Below are positions 25,179 to 45,553 of a stretch of DNA of 64,000 nucleotides, one piece after another. This DNA comes from Dictyostelium discoideum (taxonomy: Eukaryota): contig CM000152.2 in assembly GCA_000004695.1 (NCBI GenBank), forward strand, positions 3,104,001-3,168,000. Reading direction: 5' to 3'. How positions within the stretch are numbered: the stretch's first letter is position 1; each line of letters begins with the position of its first letter. The position numbers and the translations under genes were made by a program. The notes beneath the pieces were generated by a model. That model was not told where the DNA came from. It saw nothing but the letters and a program-made list of their open reading frames with translations, and did no database searches.

Positions 25179-27389
25179 TTATCTACCTCTAAAATCTAAA
25201 TTGAATTGAATAATTTTAGCATTTTTATCCCAAGAAGTAGTTACAATTGAAGAATCATAAGTTGTTAAAGAAGATATACGATTTGAATGATTATAAAGTG
25301 TTCTTTTACATTTTCCATTATCAACATCCCATAATTTAACGGTACCATCAAAGGAAGCAGAAACCACGAAATTATTGATAAATTTGGAAAGATTGACAAC
25401 TTCATCAGTGTGACCTTCTAAACAATGATAGGATTCACCATAGTTTGAATCCCAAACTTTTAGAGTTGAATCGGAGCTTGCAGTTAAGAATTTCTTTGGA
25501 GCAGTTGTACCATCGGTATCAACTTTACCATAGACCAAGATTGAATTTACACTACCACTATGAGATTGAAGAGTTTTAATACATTCACCATTATCCAATG
25601 ACCAAACTTTAACTCTACCATCACACGAGCCACTAATTAAAGTATCGGTAGAGTCAACTTCTAAACATTTAATCCAATCACTATGACCCGATAAAACATT
25701 TGTACTGGTACTGGTACGGATATCCCAAACTCTAATATTTGAATCATTTGAGCCAGAGATTACACGATATTGATCATTAACCACCAAACACATTACAGCT
25801 TGTTGATGACCAAACAATGTGATTGCAGGTTTATGACTACGACTATCCCAAACATTGATATTATTATCATTGGAGCCCGATACGAATATATTTGAATCTT
25901 GATTGACCAAACAAGTGATTGAACCTTTATGACCTCTAAATGATTTAATTTTTTGACCTTTTTGTAAATCCCAATATTTGATGGTTTTATCATATGAACC
26001 ACTTAACAATTTGGAGCCATCGGAACCCATAATCTCACAAGTTGTAACCCAACCACTATGATCCGATAAAGTGTTGATACATTTTGTAGTTGTTACATCC
26101 CAAACTTTTAATGTCGAATCGGCTGAACCCGTAATCAATAGATTATTTTCACGCTGAGAAATGGTTGAACATAAAACACCTTCAGAATGACCAGTGAACA
26201 ACTTCACCACATAATCACCTCTACTTTCAGAGATTTCTTTAATTGAGAAATTATTATTTTTGGTTGAATCTTTCTTTTTACTTGACTTACTCTCCTCCCA
26301 AGTTGATTTAATATTCATAATTTTATTCAATGAAACATGACCCTTTTCATCGAATAGATTTTGAAATATTTCATTGCCAACCTTGTTGTTTTTAGAATCT
26401 TTACCGCCACTACCAATCTTTGTAATCAATTGATAGGAATCCTCTTTTTCTCTCATTATATGTTTACGATGAACCAATTCATTATTATTATTATTATCTT
26501 GAAGTTTGGTTGAATTGATACCATTGTTAACTGTACTATCAAGATCTGATAATTCTCTAGCTCTTGACATATTTGAAACCACTTGTAACATTGTATCAGA
26601 ATCCAAATTAACTGAAGCACACATTCTATTTACAAATCTACGTACTAAATCGGGGGTTGAACCCAATGTAATCATTTTAAAAGTTTGATTTGATAATAAT
26701 GAAAATGCCATATCTTCTTCTTGTTTTATTAATTCCTTTTTAGTATCATCATTCTTTATTGACCATTCTACCATTTCTATTAACATTGAATTACCAATAC
26801 CATAAAGGTTTTTACATTTTGCTTCAATATGATCATAAAATAATTTTTCCCAAAACTTTTGGTTTTGCCAAAGGTCAATATTTGTTTGTAACTTTTCATG
26901 TAAATATTCATTTTGTCCTTTAAAAATTCTATGATAAATAAAAATTGATTCTAAAAATAATTGTGATGATATAAAATCTAATTGTGTATTACATTCTCTT
27001 AATGTAAATCTAATTATATCAACTAAACAATTAAATATTAAATCTGATAATTTAGTTTTACTATGATTTACACTACTACCAATACTACCACTTCTACTAC
27101 CACCACTTTTTGTATTTGAATTACTACTACCACCACCACCACCACTATGTAAACTCATTTGTGAAACATTTGAACCAACATAATTTTGTTTATGATGATT
27201 TAATAATAATTTACCAAAAATATGTCTACCATAATCAAATTGTAATACATCTAAAATTTGTTGAATATCATCAATTGGCACTTGATCACTAAAAATCTTA
27301 TCTAAAAATTTTTCAATTAAAATTACAAATGATTTATGTTGATCTTCATTAAATGAAAATTGTTGTAAACTTGATGAAATAATTGATAA

Positions 27390-27482
<93 letters not shown>

Positions 27483-30378
27483 TGATAATTCAATATTATT
27501 ATTATTATTATTATTATAAATATCATAAAGTGGTTTTAATTGATCTTGATTTAATAATGAAGTTGATGAAGAAGTTAATGAAGTTGAAGTTGAAGAAGTT
27601 GAAGAAGGTGAAGAAGTTATTGAACCAAATAAATCCAATTTTAAAGGTGATGGGAATTTTGAATATTCTTTTAATGTTGAATTATGTTGTGATGGATATG
27701 AAACTGATTGATAACTACTATAATGTGAAGATTTAATTGAGGATGGATTTGAAGATTGAATTATATTTACACTGAATGGATCAATTAAACCCAATGCTAG
27801 AGGTATTTGTGATTGATATTGTTGTTGTAATTCATCGATGGTTAATTTTTGATATCTTTTTGAATGCACAAGATAATCGAATAAATTCTTTGTTGGCCAA
27901 CTATGTTGTTCTAAAAAGTAAATGAATGCTTGAGTTTTAATAAACATTGAAATGAATGGTCTTGACGCAACAGCTTTTGATTTAATATATTCTTCATTAT
28001 TAAAAATTGGTACAGGTTGAGGGAAAACTCTTAAATATTTATAATATTTTCTATAATCATGTAATAAATTACAAAAATATTGTAAAAATGAAAATCTAAT
28101 ATGTTGATCAGGATTTGATGATATTGTTGGTAATGGTGGTATTGGTTGACTATTTGTTGTTGAATTACGTGATGAAGAATTTGAAGTTGTTGTTGAAGTT
28201 GTTGTTGTTGAAGATCTTTTATTACTAATTGAATCATTTGAGTTATTATTATTATTATTATTACTTGTTTTAATTGATGATAATGTATTTGGATTAAAAT
28301 TTGGTAAATCTGATGATAAAATTTCAAATTGTACAACTTTTTTTAATTGATTAATTAGTATTTGAGTTTCTTTTTCAGGTAATTGAATATCTTTTGTAGA
28401 GGTTGGAATATTGATTGAATTATTATCTAAATCGACTATTACCAATTCGTTTAATAGATCTTCTTTTGAAAGGATACGATCAGCATATGATCTATGAATG
28501 CCCATTATGAATGGGAACGGTGTACTACCCGCAATGTCAACTAAAACCTCTGGTAATACAGGTACATAGATATGAGTATACACTAATGGATGAATTAATG
28601 TTGTAATGATTTCGCAAATATAAGTTAAAAGAGTATACTGTGATGAAATGATTAAAATCTTTTCTTCCAATAATAAACACTTTATCAATGAAAGTACATT
28701 TCTAATATCCAAACTAAGGAATAACATTCTATAGGAGATGTCAGGTTCTGGTAATAAACATGGATCTGGTTGCTTCAATAAACATTGATTTAATCCACCC
28801 AAACTAAAGGTAACTGGATTCTTTCCTGGTCTTGGTAATTGAATTTCACTAACTAAATTGAATATATATCTTTCAATTGGAATTGGTGATGGATTATGAA
28901 ATACTCTATGATAAATTTCATTCAATGCAACTCTAAATGAACTAAAAAATGGAAAATGTGATAAAACACAAATACATTTTGGTGCATATAATTTAATTGG
29001 AAAATCATCAATTATTGTTGTTGTTATTGTTGTTGAAGAATTTGTTGAATTATTATTATTTGTTGTATTAGTTGTAGTAGTAGTTGTATTGGTTACATTA
29101 GTAGTATTTGAATTAGAATCTTGTGGCGAAGAAGAAGAAGAAGAAGAAGATGTTGTTGTTGTTACTGCTGCTGTTGGAATTGTAGTTGTTTGAGAATTTC
29201 CAATAGTTGGTGAGGAATTTGAAGAAGATGAAGAAATTGTTGGTGAAATTGCAGTTACATTTGCTTCAGAAATTGTTGAATCTCTTATTAATGACTCAAT
29301 ATCTTTTTCTTTAACATCATTATTTTGTTCATTATTATTATTACTATTATTATTATTATTATTTAAATTACTATTATTTAAATTATTATTATTATTTAAA
29401 ATTAAATTATTAAAATTTTTAGAATCTAAAGTTTCTTTATGTAATTCTTGATAAATTGAATCATTAATTTGTTCATAAAAAGTTAAACAAGAGGCATAAA
29501 AACGTTGACCAGTTTCATTTGTTAAAACAAAAGGAAAGAATGATGGTTGTGGTTGTTCAGTTTTAAAATTAATACCACGTGGAAAACAATACATCCAAAT
29601 ATGTTTTGGTAGAATACCTTCTTTAATTAAATCTTTTTCTTCTTTGTGAGGGTAGTAATCTAAAAGTTCACCTTTATAAGATTTCTCCAATGGTAATGGT
29701 AGAATTGTGGTTGTAGTATTACCCGATGTACCTCTATGACTATTATGAAATTGTTGTTCATTCAATTGATCCAATGGGTCAAGATTTTTAGTTGATGATA
29801 AACCACAAACAAAGAAATAATCAATCGGTCTATCTGGTACATACTTTTTCTCTCTTTCTAATTTCTTTTTCTCTTCTTTCTCTCTTTTACGTGCCTCCCT
29901 TCTTTCAGCTTCAATCTTTTTATGAATTTCCTCTTGTTCCAATTGTCTTAATTTTTCACGTGCCATAGCTTTCTCTTTTTCAATTCTTTCCGATTCTTGT
30001 TCTTTTGCTAATTGTTCCTCTATTATTTTTCTTTCTTGTTCTTTTCTTGCTTTTTCAATTGCTATTGAATCTTTATTATTAGTTATTAAAAATGATGAAC
30101 CTGAATTATTTCCTGTAGAATTTGTTGTATTGGTTGTTTGTACATTTGGTGAACCTGCTATTGATGCTGTAGTTGTTGTTGTTGTTGTTGTTGTTGTCGT
30201 TGTAGTTGTTGCTATATTATTTTGTGTTATAGGTGATGGTGGTGCTGTTGTTACTGTTGATGATTGTGATGAAATTGATTGTGAATGTAGTGGTGGTGTT
30301 GTTGGTTCTGATTGATTACCCGCTATATTATTATGATCACTATTACTTGGTGTAATATTACAACTATTACTATTATTA

Positions 30379-30446
<68 letters not shown>

Positions 30447-31066
30447 GGTACCATTTACATTATTTTGATTTTGAGTTTGATTTTGATTTTTTGATGACGA
30501 TGATGATGATGATGATGATGATGATGTTGTTTTATCTATTCTTGAAGTTATTTTCTTTTTTAATTTTAAAATTTGACTACCACCCTTACCAATAAAAGAC
30601 ATTTCTTTTGGATTTACAGGTTCTGGTTTATAATCTTTTGGTGGTGCTTGTACACCATTTATATTATTGCTGTTTACATTGTTGCTATTATTACTATTAC
30701 TATTACTATTACTATTACTATTACTATTACTATTACTATTACTATTACTATTACTATTACTATTACTATTAGTTCCACCTCCACCTATTATACCACTACT
30801 GCTACTATCATCAATTGATTGAGCACTATTTGTATTTGTATCAGTATCAAAATAAATATCCCTAATTTTAACCATTATTTTTACACGTAATTCTGAAAGG
30901 ATTTGAGGTGAATTTGATGATGGTTTTATATCTCTATCTACAGGTGTCCAACAATCAATTGTAAATATTTCAAATACTGATGTTGATTCCGATGTTATTG
31001 AATTTGAATTCATTGATGCTATACCATCAATACTATTACTATTCACCATTATGCTATTTCTATTAC

Positions 31067-31097
<31 letters not shown>

Positions 31098-31525
31098 TGT
31101 AATATTATTCATATTATTAGAAATTGAAGGTGACGATGATATTTGAGCACTTGTTAATGTTTGTTCATTCGTTGATGTTGATGTTGATGTTGATGATGGT
31201 GGTGGTGGTGACGTAGGTACTGATGGTGATGTTACATCTGATATTACCGTTGTTGGTGTTGGTGTTGAGGCTATTGTTGATGTTGGTGTTGGTGTAGTTG
31301 CTATTGTTGGTGTTGATGTTGGTGTATTTGTTATATTTTGATCATCACTAACACCATTTGGCTTTATATCTGTAATTATTATTGGTGATGGTGTGGTTAT
31401 TATTGAATTTGGTGATACAATTGGTATTTTTATTGAACCAACTCGTATATCATTACCAATTATATTTTGACTATAAATTTGAAATAAAACAAGATCTACT
31501 GTTTCTGTAGTTGTTCTATAAAATT

Positions 31526-32944: not shown

Positions 32945-32948
<4 letters not shown>

Positions 32949-33289
32949 TCAAAGGAAGTTGCAATATAATCAGCTCTAAGAGAATAACATAAATTTTCTT
33001 CCCAAGTGTAGAAAACAGCATTGAAACCAGTGGTGGTGATATCTTGAGCTTGGACACCACAACGAATTTGGAATGATTTGTCAGGATTTTGACCAGCAAC
33101 ACAATCGATGTGATCCAAAGTTAAGCAAACCTTTGGTGTAGTTCCAAATGGGGCATCGAATTTAACAGGTACAATCACTTCACGTTTACCAACAACTGGT
33201 CTATTCAATAAGCAATCATTACCGGTATATAAGTCTGAACCAGTTTCAATATGACATTTTGTATTTTTTTTTTTAAAAAAATATTTCAA
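32945..33289 (-). pseudogene. H-type lectin (Helix pomatia agglutinin-like) domain ORF with no in-frame Met. Either a pseudogene or a sequencing frameshift, or its first exon is unrecognised.
   Basis: The ORF reads ...[103 protein letters not shown] then stop. It aligns to the HPA/discoidin-II H-type lectin pattern (F..PF..PPVV.L..ID........R......I...GF.A..YTW....YS....I). No ATG codon exists in this frame. The only nearby ATG (aaaATGtcatattga) is +1 out of frame and stops after 3 codons. A TATAAATTAAG box lies ~70 nt upstream. Confidence 0.55.
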
Positions 33290-35656: not shown

Positions 35657-37535
35657 TTAAGTTGTAATAGTTTTTAATAGTATACAACTTGTTTCTATTG
35701 ATGAATTTAAAATTGATAATTTCATTGATTTCGGCTCAAATAAATTTAAATCTAAAATATCACCAATTTTATTTTCTTCAATATTAATACAAGAATTATT
35801 ATTATTATTATTAATTTGGAATAATTGATCAATTAAATCTAAATTTAAATCACTATTTAAAAGTAATAATTTAATAATATCTTTAATTGATTTTTGTAAT
35901 GATTTTATAATTAAAACCTCTTTAATTAAATTTGTTGATAATGATGATGATGATGATGATGATGAATTTTGTTTATTTTTAATTAATTCATTTAATAAAT
36001 TAATTATTATAAATTCAAAATTTGAAGAAGAACCAACAAATTTAAAATCATCATCAATTATAATTGATCTAAATATTGTTAATAATGATTCTAAACCGAG
36101 TTTAGCCTCTTTTAGGAATTTTTTACTTGAGCCTTTCAATATAATAGTTTGAGTATCACTAAATTGACAACCCTCAAATAATTCATATGATTTTTTACCA
36201 ATTATAATTTGTTTATATTTTTTACAAGTTCCATAAAATGATGAATCTAATGATAGATTTTGTAAACTTGATTGAGTATTACCACCAATTGATTTTTTAA
36301 TAAATTCAAATTCATTTATATTATTAATTGAACCAATACAATTAATTTTATTATTATTATTTTGATTTTGGCTACTTATTTTAACAAATTCTTGAATTGC
36401 TAAATCACCAATTACTTTTTTATTTAATATTAAATTTATATTTAAATTGTAAATATTTTCCAATTGTTTTGAAATTAATGATTTCTCTGCATTTATAAAC
36501 TCTAAATAATCATTAACATTTGAAATTTCAATATTTGCAAACTCTTTTTGATGTTTTAATTCAATTTCATAATCTAATAATAATATTTTAGGATTTTCAA
36601 TTACTTTAATTAATTTATCTCTACCTGCAAATGAAAATTTAGATTTTATTAAAATTCCATTTAATAATTTAATTTCAATTTCATCATTATCATCATCATC
36701 TTCCTCTTCTTTTTTTTCATCTTCATCTTCATTATTATTATTATGATCTTCATTACTTGAAATTATAGTTTTAATTTTAATTTTATTTTTATCTAAATTG
36801 GGTAAAATTTTAATTAACTTTTTAAAAATTTTAGAAATTCTTTTAAAATAAATTGATAATATATTTTTTGATAAATTGGTTTTTATAATTGATTCTAATA
36901 ATTGATCATTTTTACCACCACTACTACTAAATATTTCATCTTTTAAATTTATAATAAATCTTTCATTAAAATTATTTTTAATAAATAATCTGCATTCTTG
37001 AAATATATTTAATATTTGATTTATTGAAAATGTTGATGTTGATGAAGATGATGAACCTTTATTATTAATTAATTTTATTGATCTTTTTAATATATTATTT
37101 GTTAATATTATATATTGTGAAACACCACACCCAAATCTATTTTTTATATAATTTGATTGTTGTAATATAATTTTATAATATGGTGAATCATTATTTAATG
37201 ATTTAAATATCAATAGCCCATCTTTTTTTTTTTTTAAAAAAAAAAAATAAAATTTTAAAATTAATATGTTAATGATTTAAAGATTAAAAATAAAAAAATT
37301 AAATAAAAATAATAAAATATAGTAAAGAAAAAAAAAAAAAAAATCTATATTAAATAAACTTACCATTTGTAAATATAATTTTTTGTGTGGAATTAACAAC
37401 ATTATCATTCTCACCCTCATCATTTTTATGATCAAAAACTTGTGATATTAATTTTAATTTACCATGAATTCCAAAACTTGATTCTATAAGTTTCGCAATA
37501 TTATCAATTATTTTAAATTCTTGATAATTATTCAT
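35657..37535 (-). CDS. Highly divergent CCT/TCP-1-like (group II chaperonin fold) protein lacking the canonical GDGTT nucleotide-binding motif. Two exons: ~37363..37535 (ATG 37535) and 35657..~37221. About 580 aa.
   Basis: Exon 1 reads MNNYQEFKIIDNIAKLIESSFGIHGKLKLISQVFDHKNDEGENDNVVNSTQKIIFTNG (compare CCT ...LGPkGmdKml...iTNDGaTIl). Exon 2 reads DGLLIFKSLNNDSPYYKIILQQSNYIKNRFGCGVSQYIILTNNIL..., so RFGCGVSQ sits where GDGTT is expected. Further on are ...FAGRDKLIKVIENPKILLLDYEIEL... (apical-domain pattern kI.nakIlLld..le) and ...ELFEGCQFSDTQTIILKGSSKKFLKEAKLGLESLLTIFRSIIID (compare ...c.TIlLRG......E.eRslhDAl.vvr). Low-complexity N/S/D/E insertions are spread throughout. Confidence 0.7.
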
Positions 37536-37581
37536 AATAAAAAAAAAAAAAAAAAAAAAAAAAAATGGAAAATCAAAAGTG

Positions 37582-37625
<44 letters not shown>

Positions 37626-37942
37626 TTGAGTAAAATTAATTAATTGTAAAAAAAAAAAAAATAATAAACAAAGTAAAATAAAAAAATAAGTAAATAAAAT
37701 GAAATGAATTAAAATATAGAAAAAAATAAAAAAAATTTTAAAAACTTAAAGTTATAAACTTGTAAAAAAAAAAAAATTATTGGTTAAAAAAAAAAATTAT
37801 TGTTAAAAAAAAAAAAAAATTGATAACGAAAAATTTTGATTTTTTTTTTTTTGAAAAAAAAAAAATTTCGAAATCAACCGTGCGGGGAAAAAAAAATGAA
37901 AAATTTCAAATTGTTATTTGTTTGTAGCTAACCAATCACACA

Positions 37943-38654
37943 ATGAAGTATGTCACACTCGTGTTATAATATCACATATCACCCTTTAAATTCACTGTCA
38001 TATATTATATAAAAATTATAATGATAATGCAATAATAATATATCATAAAAGATAATCAACACAATTGAATGATAATTATGATAGATTAAAGATTGATGAT
38101 AGTGGATATAAGATTAAAGATTAAAGAGAAAATTTATAAATAAAATTATATAAATATTAATCATAAACTTTTATTATAGGACCTCTCTTTGCAACTACAG
38201 TGAATTCAAAATCTACCCAGCTCGTGGTATGTATAATAATATTTAGGTTTAGGATTATATAGGATATTAGGCAGGATTTAGGGAATTTTTTATATTAATC
38301 AATCAATCAATTCAATATTTAGGTATGAAATTCGTTAGAGGTGACTCTAAAGTTTTCCACTTTATCAACACTAAAGTTGAATCTCTCTTCTTCAGAAAGA
38401 TCAACCCAAGAGATATTAGATGGTCAATGGTTTACCGTAGAATCTACAAAAACACCACCACTGATGTTTCAGCCAAAAAGAAGGCCAGAAAGACCAAGAA
38501 AGTCGAAAGAAACATCGTCGGTGCTTCATTAGAAGTCATCCAACAAAAACGTGCCCAAAAACCAGAAGTCAAACAAGCTGCTGCCGAACAAGCCAAAAGA
38601 GAAATCAAAGAAAAGAAGAAAGCTGCTGCCAAAAAAGCTGCCCCAAAAAAATAA
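37943..38654 (+). CDS. rpl24: 60S ribosomal protein L24e, 3 exons: 37943..37947 (a 5-nt first exon, ATGAA), 38180..38226, 38323..38654.
   Basis: ATGAA|gtatgt, then ...ttattatag|GACCTCTCTTTGCAACTACAGTGAATTCAAAATCTACCCAGCTCGTG|gtatgt, then ...atttag|GTATGAAATTCGTTAGAGGT... This gives MKTSLCNYSEFKIYPARGGMKFVRGDSKVFHFINTKVESLFFRKINPRDIRWSMVYRRIYKNTTTDVSAKKKARKTKKVERNIVGASLEVIQQKRAQKPE...KKAAPKK. It matches L24e (MK.ELCsfSGyKIYPGhG.r..R.D.kvF.F...KC...f..k.NPR...WT..yRR). The exon lengths sum to 384 nt in frame. Confidence 0.9.

Positions 38655-44497: not shown

Positions 44498-45553
<1,056 letters not shown>

Follow-up and report, generated by a model that had tools for sequence, protein, structure and literature searches.

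A Dictyostelium chaperonin-fold protein of CCT-eta ancestry with degenerate ATP motifs, and its possible place in a wider eta-like family

Accounts of the chaperonin TRiC/CCT usually give it the same eight paralogues in all eukaryotes, and the known exceptions (BBS6/10/12, CCT8L and CCT6B) are animal-centred. A gene of Dictyostelium discoideum, DDB_G0280227, raises the question of what a chaperonin-like protein that has lost most of its nucleotide-binding motifs descends from, and what it could still do. The gene lies on the minus strand at positions 35657-37535 of a 64,000-nucleotide stretch of contig CM000152.2 (assembly GCA_000004695.1, positions 3,104,001 to 3,168,000), which we call the window. 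A first-pass annotation, made from the letters of the window alone, had described this region as a highly degenerate, CCT-like chaperonin paralogue, probably ATPase-dead. Such a protein amounts to a natural experiment on chaperonin subunit function without nucleotide cycling, in a host that is haploid and genetically tractable, and in which knockouts and pull-downs are routine.

Gene model, fold and nucleotide motifs

The region had been delimited correctly. Its spliced product matches DDB_G0280227 of D. discoideum AX4 at every residue (100% identity); this protein of 578 amino acids is encoded by two exons and carries the database label "hypothetical protein". At about 13-28% G+C per 2 kb, the window is rich in A and T. 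The gene is organised as follows:

37364..37535, minus strand: exon 1 of DDB_G0280227, from Met1 to the first base of Asp58, with the shortened N-terminus and a degenerate LGPxGxDK motif
37222..37363, minus strand: intron of 142 nucleotides, GTAAGT...AG, interrupting the Asp codon of TN|DG
35657..37221, minus strand: exon 2 of DDB_G0280227, from Asp58 to Thr578, and the stop codon

The exon junction, which had been read as IIFTNGDGLLIF, is in truth IIFTNDGLLIF; the codon split by the intron is Asp, and the canonical TNDG motif is thereby restored. The intron position (AAT G|gt) is the same in three other genomes of the D. discoideum complex, and it can also be used in D. purpureum. In the model deposited for that species, DICPUDRAFT_152813 (L002:6201-6300), the GT donor lies 9 nucleotides downstream of the conserved one, which inserts 'GNI' and gives TNGNIDG; with the upstream donor, AAT G|GTAACA, TNDG is obtained and the intron position matches that of D. 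discoideum. The donor choice in the deposited model is probably an annotation slip.

A Cpn60_TCP1 profile search and a structure prediction had been proposed as checks, and both place the protein among the group II chaperonins, as the first-pass annotation had supposed. The Pfam Cpn60_TCP1 model (PF00118) matches residues 45-574 with an E-value of 3.3e-45 and 155.2 bits, against a cut-off of 34.3. In a sequence search of the PDB, the eleven best matches are all CCT-eta (yeast at 7e-33), and the best other subunit is gamma, at 3.5e-17. The NCBIfam subunit models give 160 bits for eta, 93 for gamma, 76 for beta, 70 for alpha and 57 for theta; the theta model is third lowest among the seven matching CCT subunit models, and the zeta model has no match. 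An AlphaFold2 model, computed from an input alignment of 40 sequences, has a mean predicted local distance difference test score (pLDDT) of 84.5 and a predicted template modelling score (pTM) of 0.82, with the full architecture of equatorial, intermediate and apical domains and a helical-protrusion region. In a Foldseek comparison of this model with the PDB, the top nine matches (template modelling score, TM, about 0.78) are chains from human and yeast TRiC, recognised as CCT-eta by their chain letter or through the PDB sequence search; the tenth, 7lum_C, was given no subunit. The TM range against TRiC and thermosome chains is 0.71-0.79.

Since sequence, subunit-profile and fold searches all rank CCT-eta first, DDB_G0280227 genuinely has the group II chaperonin fold and descends from eta. 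It is, however, not the eta subunit itself: its 160 bits fall below the equivalog cut-off of the eta model TIGR02345 (669 bits), whereas canonical etas score 818-878. Comparisons with canonical eta were made without D. discoideum's own cct7 sequence, which we take to be UniProt TCPH_DICDI. Every CCT family is reported to be readily recognised in Dictyostelium (PMC10074162).

The loss of nucleotide motifs extends well beyond the GDGTT loop, whose replacement by RFGCGVSQ had already been pointed out. Four motifs are altered:

37452..37475, minus strand: FGIHGKLK, residues 21-28, counterpart of the nucleotide-binding LGPRGMDK; TTLGPRGMDK has become SSFGIHGKLK, and Gly-Pro and Asp are lost
37115..37138, minus strand: RFGCGVSQ, residues 86-93, degenerate P-loop in place of EVGDGTTS; VGDGTTS has become FGCGVSQ, and the P-loop is lost
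36080..36100, minus strand: LGLESLL, residues 432-438, counterpart of RSLHDAI; HDA has become ESL, and the catalytic Asp is replaced by Ser
36014..36037, minus strand: VGSSSNFE, residues 453-460, counterpart of VAGGGAxE; AGGGAxE has become GSSSNFE, and GGG is replaced by SSS

TNDG, which reads the same as in canonical eta, is the sole nucleotide motif kept. The landmarks that had been picked out by eye are all present, namely FGIHGKLKLI (residues 21-30), NPKILLLDYEIEL (267-279), TQTIILKGSSKKFLKEAKLGLESLLTIFRSIIID (415-448) and RFGCGVSQ (86-93, at 37138..37115); the third of these had been called C-terminal, and sits instead in the second intermediate-domain segment.

In the alignment, each residue of RFGCGVSQ has its counterpart in EVGDGTTS of canonical eta, and the same loss is seen in five orthologues. 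The first-pass annotation had itself raised the possibility that a corrected gene model might restore a GDGTT exon; no such exon occurs in the window, where GDGT, GDGS and GxGTT are encoded in none of the six frames. As the degenerate loop furthermore lies inside a long uninterrupted exon, rescue by another gene model is excluded. A hidden exon or gene-model error is ruled out by the place of the motif in the middle of that 1.5-kb exon, the collinear alignment and the occurrence of the same change in orthologues.

Because four ATP motifs are lost, DDB_G0280227 is, judged from its motifs, almost certainly unable to bind or hydrolyse ATP in the manner of a chaperonin. The earlier wording, ATPase-dead, would if anything understate the case, with Gly-Pro, the catalytic Asp and GGG lost as well as GDGTT. 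Gly-Pro has been described as the crucial ATP-binding dipeptide, kept even in the BBS and CCT8L proteins (Mukherjee et al., PMC2846930). By this measure, which is one of sequence, DDB_G0280227 is more degenerate than they are.

BBS chaperonins serve the assembly of the BBSome and the cilium, and Dictyostelium has no cilia. The first-pass annotation, which itself remarked on the lack of cilia, had likened the protein to BBS6, BBS10 and BBS12, and the general character is indeed shared. BBS6/MKKS, BBS10, BBS12 and CCT8L1/2 are likewise divergent group II paralogues with degenerate ATP-hydrolysis sites, which act with TRiC and not as its subunits (PMC2846930; PMC10074162), and a BBS12-like identity has been proposed for another Dictyostelium gene, DDB_G0268902 (PMC10074162). 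That DDB_G0280227 is itself an orthologue of BBS6, BBS10 or BBS12 is nonetheless very improbable. The BBS chaperonins are reported to be CCT8-like in descent (PMC10074162), whereas the parent lineage here is eta (160 bits, against 57 for theta); the BBS proteins keep Gly-Pro (PMC2846930), whereas DDB_G0280227 reads FGIHG; and the gene published as BBS12-like lies at another locus. We rejected BBS orthology on the subunit-model scores and the loss of Gly-Pro, the relation being judged from these rather than from a tree with BBS sequences. The comparison thus fails for lineage and stands for function: we infer that DDB_G0280227 may be a functional analogue, of independent origin, of the BBS6/10/12 pseudo-chaperonins. 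As for DDB_G0268902, the two are alike in being non-canonical group II chaperonin-family genes of D. discoideum, DDB_G0268902 being a second one beside DDB_G0280227. Compared by description, they differ in that DDB_G0268902, at its other locus, is reported to belong to no CCT family and to have thermosomes as its best outside matches (PMC10074162), whereas DDB_G0280227 is affiliated with eta.

Outside the nucleotide site, the protein is altered at its ends and by a series of insertions. The low-complexity insertions that had been remarked upon could be located as five stretches, at residues 33-48, 113-121, 213-241, 339-346 and 480-490. The main features are:

37392..37439, minus strand: low-complexity insertion of 16 residues, residues 33-48, at the tip of the stem-loop hairpin
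36671..36757, minus strand: Asn/acidic low-complexity insertion, residues 213-241, at the boundary of the intermediate and apical domains; pLDDT below 50 at 216-236
36164..36658, minus strand: apical domain, about residues 246-410, the best-conserved part of the protein
36524..36595, minus strand: lid-region signature NPKILLLDYEIELKHQKEFANIEI, residues 267-290; canonical eta has ELELKAEKDNAEVR
36380..36412, minus strand: IGDLAIQEFVK, residues 328-338, the apical substrate-contact helix
35660..35683, minus strand: C-terminal end ILLKTITT; the stop codon directly follows the last equatorial helix, and nothing corresponds to the C-terminal segment and tail of canonical eta

The rings of group II chaperonins have an inter-subunit beta-sheet, to which one subunit contributes its N- and C-terminal strands and its neighbour the stem-loop. 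Compared with the canonical eta of Acrasis, DDB_G0280227 lacks the first 26 residues (MMQPGIILLRDGTDTSQGKGQLLSNI, with the IILLKEGTD segment) and the last 28 (DETVKNPKSE..., with the VDETxKNP segment) along with the tail. The AlphaFold2 model places the strands of the stem-loop at residues 28-34 and 50-56, with pLDDT below 50 at 41-48. In the substrate-contact helix, the signature Q/Y/D of CCT7 (PMC2846930) has become Q/E/K, with QEF in six of six dictyostelid proteins, and IGDxAxQ is retained.

CCT7 (TCP-1 eta, TIGR02345) is the best match in sequence, profile and structure, with the three-domain fold, TNDG, IGDxAxQ and an apical identity of about 33-36% in common. DDB_G0280227 differs from it in its score (160 against 669 bits), in lacking Gly-Pro, GDGTT, the catalytic Asp, GGG and both terminal segments, in its substrate helix and in its five low-complexity inserts.

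Orthologues and selection in Dictyostelia

A gene with all its catalytic motifs lost and many low-complexity insertions, which is mentioned in no paper that we found, could be a decaying, non-functional relic. Its conservation makes this explanation the least credible that we considered, and we strongly disfavour it. Orthologues occur in D. purpureum (48% identity), Polysphondylium violaceum (38%), Heterostelium album, Acytostelium subglobosum and one dictyostelid represented in EukProt; they are kept in all named dictyostelid genera recovered, at least five in number, which we take from the established phylogeny to span both major branches of Dictyostelia. The open reading frame (ORF) is intact in every genome examined. 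Across four genomes of the D. discoideum complex, the ratio of nonsynonymous to synonymous substitution rates (dN/dS, Nei-Gojobori) is 0.14-0.23, over dS values of 0.04-0.14. Because dN/dS is low and the ORF is conserved, DDB_G0280227 is no pseudogene: the gene is intact, and purifying selection acts on it.

The constraint is unevenly distributed. Against D. cf. discoideum, dN/dS is 0.09 in the apical domain and 0.09 in the N-terminal equatorial half, versus 0.51 in the C-terminal equatorial half, all from small substitution counts.

The sequence that replaced the P-loop is itself conserved, which also speaks against a relic. GDGTT is absent from all five of the dictyostelid orthologues that cover this region, and in its place stands GxG[VA][SG]Q. 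The remaining motifs are more variably kept. The catalytic Asp is present in Acytostelium, Heterostelium, P. violaceum and the EukProt dictyostelid; GGG is present in the first three of these and reads GAG in the fourth. Both are lost only in D. discoideum and D. purpureum, and the Dictyostelium group-4 species additionally lack the Gly-Pro dipeptide. By this comparison of motifs, the decay of the ATP site is stepwise within Dictyostelia.

The eta-like family

Whether the gene itself, and not only its ATP-dead state, is peculiar to dictyostelids depends on its relatives. An initial homologue search with the full protein gave 10 matches, probably with low-complexity words swamping the candidates. 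We rely on a profile search that went exhaustively through 1.84 billion representative proteins, with names added by look-up; a profile search that itself carried names missed several known members and is hence not exhaustive. Related proteins, which we call eta-like, occur in the heteroloboseans Naegleria gruberi (NAEGRDRAFT_34419), N. lovaniensis, Willaertia magna, Acrasis kona (where the protein is annotated "TCP-1 chaperonin, eta subunit") and Pharyngomonas kirbyi; looser members are found in Spironema sp. and the GILJ01 transcriptome, and several environmental contigs also carry the type. For every eta-like member scanned, eta is the best NCBIfam subunit model, with 385-522 bits, below the cut-off of 669.

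Several features are common to the dictyostelid and heterolobosean proteins. Where canonical eta has the lid motif ELKAEKDNAE, eta-like proteins have ELKHQKE[FY]A; DDB_G0280227 reads ELKHQKEFAN, and this signature or a close variant is found in six of six dictyostelid proteins. Both groups have S[ST][YF]G...K in place of the canonical TTLGPRGMDK, and both lack the N-terminal IILLKEGTD segment. The two groups differ in that the non-dictyostelid eta-like proteins keep GDGTT, GGG and Gly-Pro, and also HDA, except for one EukProt protein with NDS, which has Asn for His and also a Ser. They furthermore share a conserved, charged C-terminal tail of about 40-45 residues, ID[YF]VVxMPxxExEE(E/K)R..R.A...(Q/K)W..., which we saw in the profile-search proteins P0015, P0164-P0166, P0011, P0008, P0013, P0023 and P0034. 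This tail is in none of the canonical eta sequences compared, and it is absent from all dictyostelid proteins, each of which ends at or just after the last helix. From the usual position of chaperonin subunit termini, such a tail would project from the equatorial end.

Acrasis kona has a canonical CCT7 (P0369, 66% identical to a jakobid eta) in addition to its eta-like protein (P0164), and the GILJ01 transcriptome likewise carries both forms. Because the two coexist in A. kona, the eta-like family is an extra paralogue and not a divergent orthologue of CCT7.

Three comparisons bear on whether the dictyostelid proteins belong to this family. First, a hidden Markov model (HMM) built from non-dictyostelid eta-like proteins alone outscores a canonical-eta HMM by 95 bits for D. 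discoideum and by 40 to 77 bits for the other dictyostelids (six proteins in all), whereas eleven fast-evolving canonical etas prefer the canonical HMM, by 27 to 200 bits. Second, the apical domain of D. discoideum is 42-43% identical to the heterolobosean and environmental eta-like proteins and 33-36% identical to canonical eta; outside Dictyostelia, its equatorial halves are 16-24% identical to either. Third, a neighbour-joining tree with 200 bootstraps supports the union of all eta-type proteins (100%), the dictyostelid clade (100%), an eta-like core (80%) and the whole divergent group (85%). Taken together with the shared motifs, the first two of these comparisons indicate that the dictyostelid proteins probably belong to the eta-like family.

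Two results from the same analyses weigh against this placement. Bootstrap support is 50% at the node where the dictyostelids join the eta-like clade, and long-branch attraction is possible. In addition, among 39 columns that discriminate eta-like from canonical eta, 9 show the eta-like state in dictyostelids and 5 the canonical one, a split that would fit the dictyostelids as sister to the other members rather than nested among them. Both results, as well as the missing tail and the fact that no named amoebozoan member outside the dictyostelids turned up, would also be expected if the gene were an independent, Dictyostelia-specific duplicate of the amoebozoan cct7 whose likeness to the heterolobosean proteins is a matter of convergence or a long-branch artefact. 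We regard such an origin as unlikely: ELKHQKE[FY]A, S[ST][YF]G and the N-terminal deletion are all common to both groups, the HMM preference of 40-95 bits is not seen in other fast-evolving etas, and the apical domain is closer to the eta-like proteins than to canonical eta.

On the placement that we prefer, within the eta-like family, the description of the gene as lineage-specific holds for the ATP-dead state, which is confined to Dictyostelia, and fails for the gene, which apparently belongs to a wider family with its ATP motifs intact. DDB_G0280227 apparently represents the end stage of an additional CCT family that has no name yet. It resembles the heterolobosean and environmental paralogues in its lid, in S[ST][YF]G...K, in the missing IILLKEGTD segment, in having eta as its best but sub-cut-off model and in its apical identity; it differs in having lost GDGTT, GGG, Gly-Pro, HDA and the charged tail.

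A more specific proposal, which we put forward tentatively and hold to be somewhat short of probable, is that there is a ninth CCT-type paralogue, 'eta-like', not described before, with DDB_G0280227 as its ATP-independent end-member. This paralogue would have split from CCT-eta before the divergence of Discoba (Heterolobosea) and Amoebozoa (Dictyostelia), or been exchanged between them, possibly with Hemimastigophora (Spironema) included. The hallmarks of such a paralogue, put forward just as tentatively, would be the absence of IILLKEGTD, STYGPxGRDK in place of TTLGPRGMDK, the ELKHQKEF lid and the charged C-terminal tail. If this proposal is true, it points either to a chaperonin complex of its own or to an accessory role beside TRiC that outlasted the loss of the ATPase in Dictyostelia. 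The family is possibly ancient, is unnamed and has apparently been overlooked by studies of chaperonin evolution; in the searchable, incomplete literature we found no report of an eta-like paralogue in Naegleria. Its distribution over Discoba and Amoebozoa would reflect either an ancient origin with losses or horizontal transfer. The family presumably spans aflagellate dictyostelids and taxa with flagellate stages.

Some individual proteins from the search have unusual architectures. P0008 (EukProt gene11896-5302_t) is an eta-like protein with intact ATP motifs and about 150 N-terminal residues with ankyrin repeats (residues 1-150). An ankyrin-containing gene divergently adjoins the P. violaceum orthologue (L005:884-2668). 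A tblastn search with the ankyrin region of P0008 had no match, either in the window or in the loci fetched, upon which we dropped the idea of an ankyrin partner for the family; the repeats of P0008 may be a coincidence or a gene-model fusion. Two profile-search proteins are of about double length: P0016 (1057 amino acids) appears to have two complete thermosome/CCT-like units in tandem, and P0046 (1047 amino acids) has two matched stretches.

Candidate roles and neighbouring genes

The best explanation that we can offer, and the one towards which we lean, is that DDB_G0280227 is a selected, eta-derived, ATP-dead chaperonin-fold protein of the eta-like family that serves as a nucleotide-independent binding module outside the eight-membered ring. 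It could be a holdase, an adaptor or a TRiC-associated factor, acting through its apical and lid surface either free or docked to TRiC or another partner, and it would not be a cycling subunit of the TRiC ring. We infer a binding module because the apical domain is conserved family-wide while the elements expected to make ring contacts have decayed and the C-terminal equatorial half is relaxed. A precedent for the reuse of apical/intermediate-type chaperonin domains as ATP-independent protein-binding modules is the Fab1_TCP domain. This CCT-like domain of Fab1/PIKfyve, which has been listed alongside the CCTs (PMC2846930), is embedded in a lipid kinase, whereas DDB_G0280227 is a full-length, three-domain chaperonin. 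Catalytically degenerate CCT-like proteins are thus already known; what is new here is the derivation from eta, the host without cilia and the greater degeneracy.

Several observations count against a role outside the ring. The stem-loop hairpin is still predicted by AlphaFold2, and the N-terminal equatorial half is strongly constrained (dN/dS 0.09), so inter-subunit contacts could still be used. Mutations of ATP binding or hydrolysis in yeast CCT7 are tolerated, and ATP-deadness alone is therefore no bar to ring membership (PMC5413064). In the searchable, incomplete literature, moreover, we found no mention of DDB_G0280227.

These observations lead to the main rival explanation, in which some TRiC rings take up the protein instead of canonical CCT7: as an inert variant subunit at the eta position, it would tune the choice of substrate through its altered apical domain. 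In addition to the predicted hairpin and the constrained N-equatorial half, its derivation from eta would suit this role, as would the location of eta in the hemisphere of low ATP affinity, where mutations that abolish ATP binding or hydrolysis leave the growth of yeast unaffected (PMC5413064). Several features argue otherwise: the IILLKEGTD segment, the C-terminal segment and the tail are deleted, a disordered insertion sits at the tip of the stem-loop, identity to canonical eta is only 16-22% in the equatorial domains, and evolution is fastest in the C-equatorial half (dN/dS 0.51). We therefore consider a variant subunit improbable, and a binding module outside the ring remains the explanation that we favour.

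The gene stands head-to-head with rpl24, a ribosomal protein gene:

37536..37943, no strand: intergenic region between DDB_G0280227 and rpl24, 408 bp, divergent, with long A/T homopolymer tracts
37536-38654, plus strand: region of rpl24 (Ribosomal_L24e), with its ATG at 37944

This pairing is kept in the strains of the D. discoideum complex and in D. purpureum, and not in P. violaceum. The two genes may share a bidirectional promoter.

Other ORFs of the window were recognised by eye or by similarity:

25179-31112, minus strand: uninterrupted ORF of 1977 amino acids with long Asn/Ser/Thr runs and, by eye, C-terminal WD40-like repeats
32945-33289, minus strand: ORF similar to the H-type lectin domain
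44507-44842 and 45083-45553, plus strand: ORFs that by eye resemble a UbiE/COQ5-type methyltransferase

The syntenic counterpart of the lectin-like ORF in D. cf. discoideum (L001:10413-11380) is annotated with F5_F8_type_C and H_lectin domains, which is a discoidin-type architecture. A Ubie_methyltran gene and a CCDC47 gene also lie near the P. violaceum orthologue of DDB_G0280227, which suggests that synteny in the region is loosely kept.

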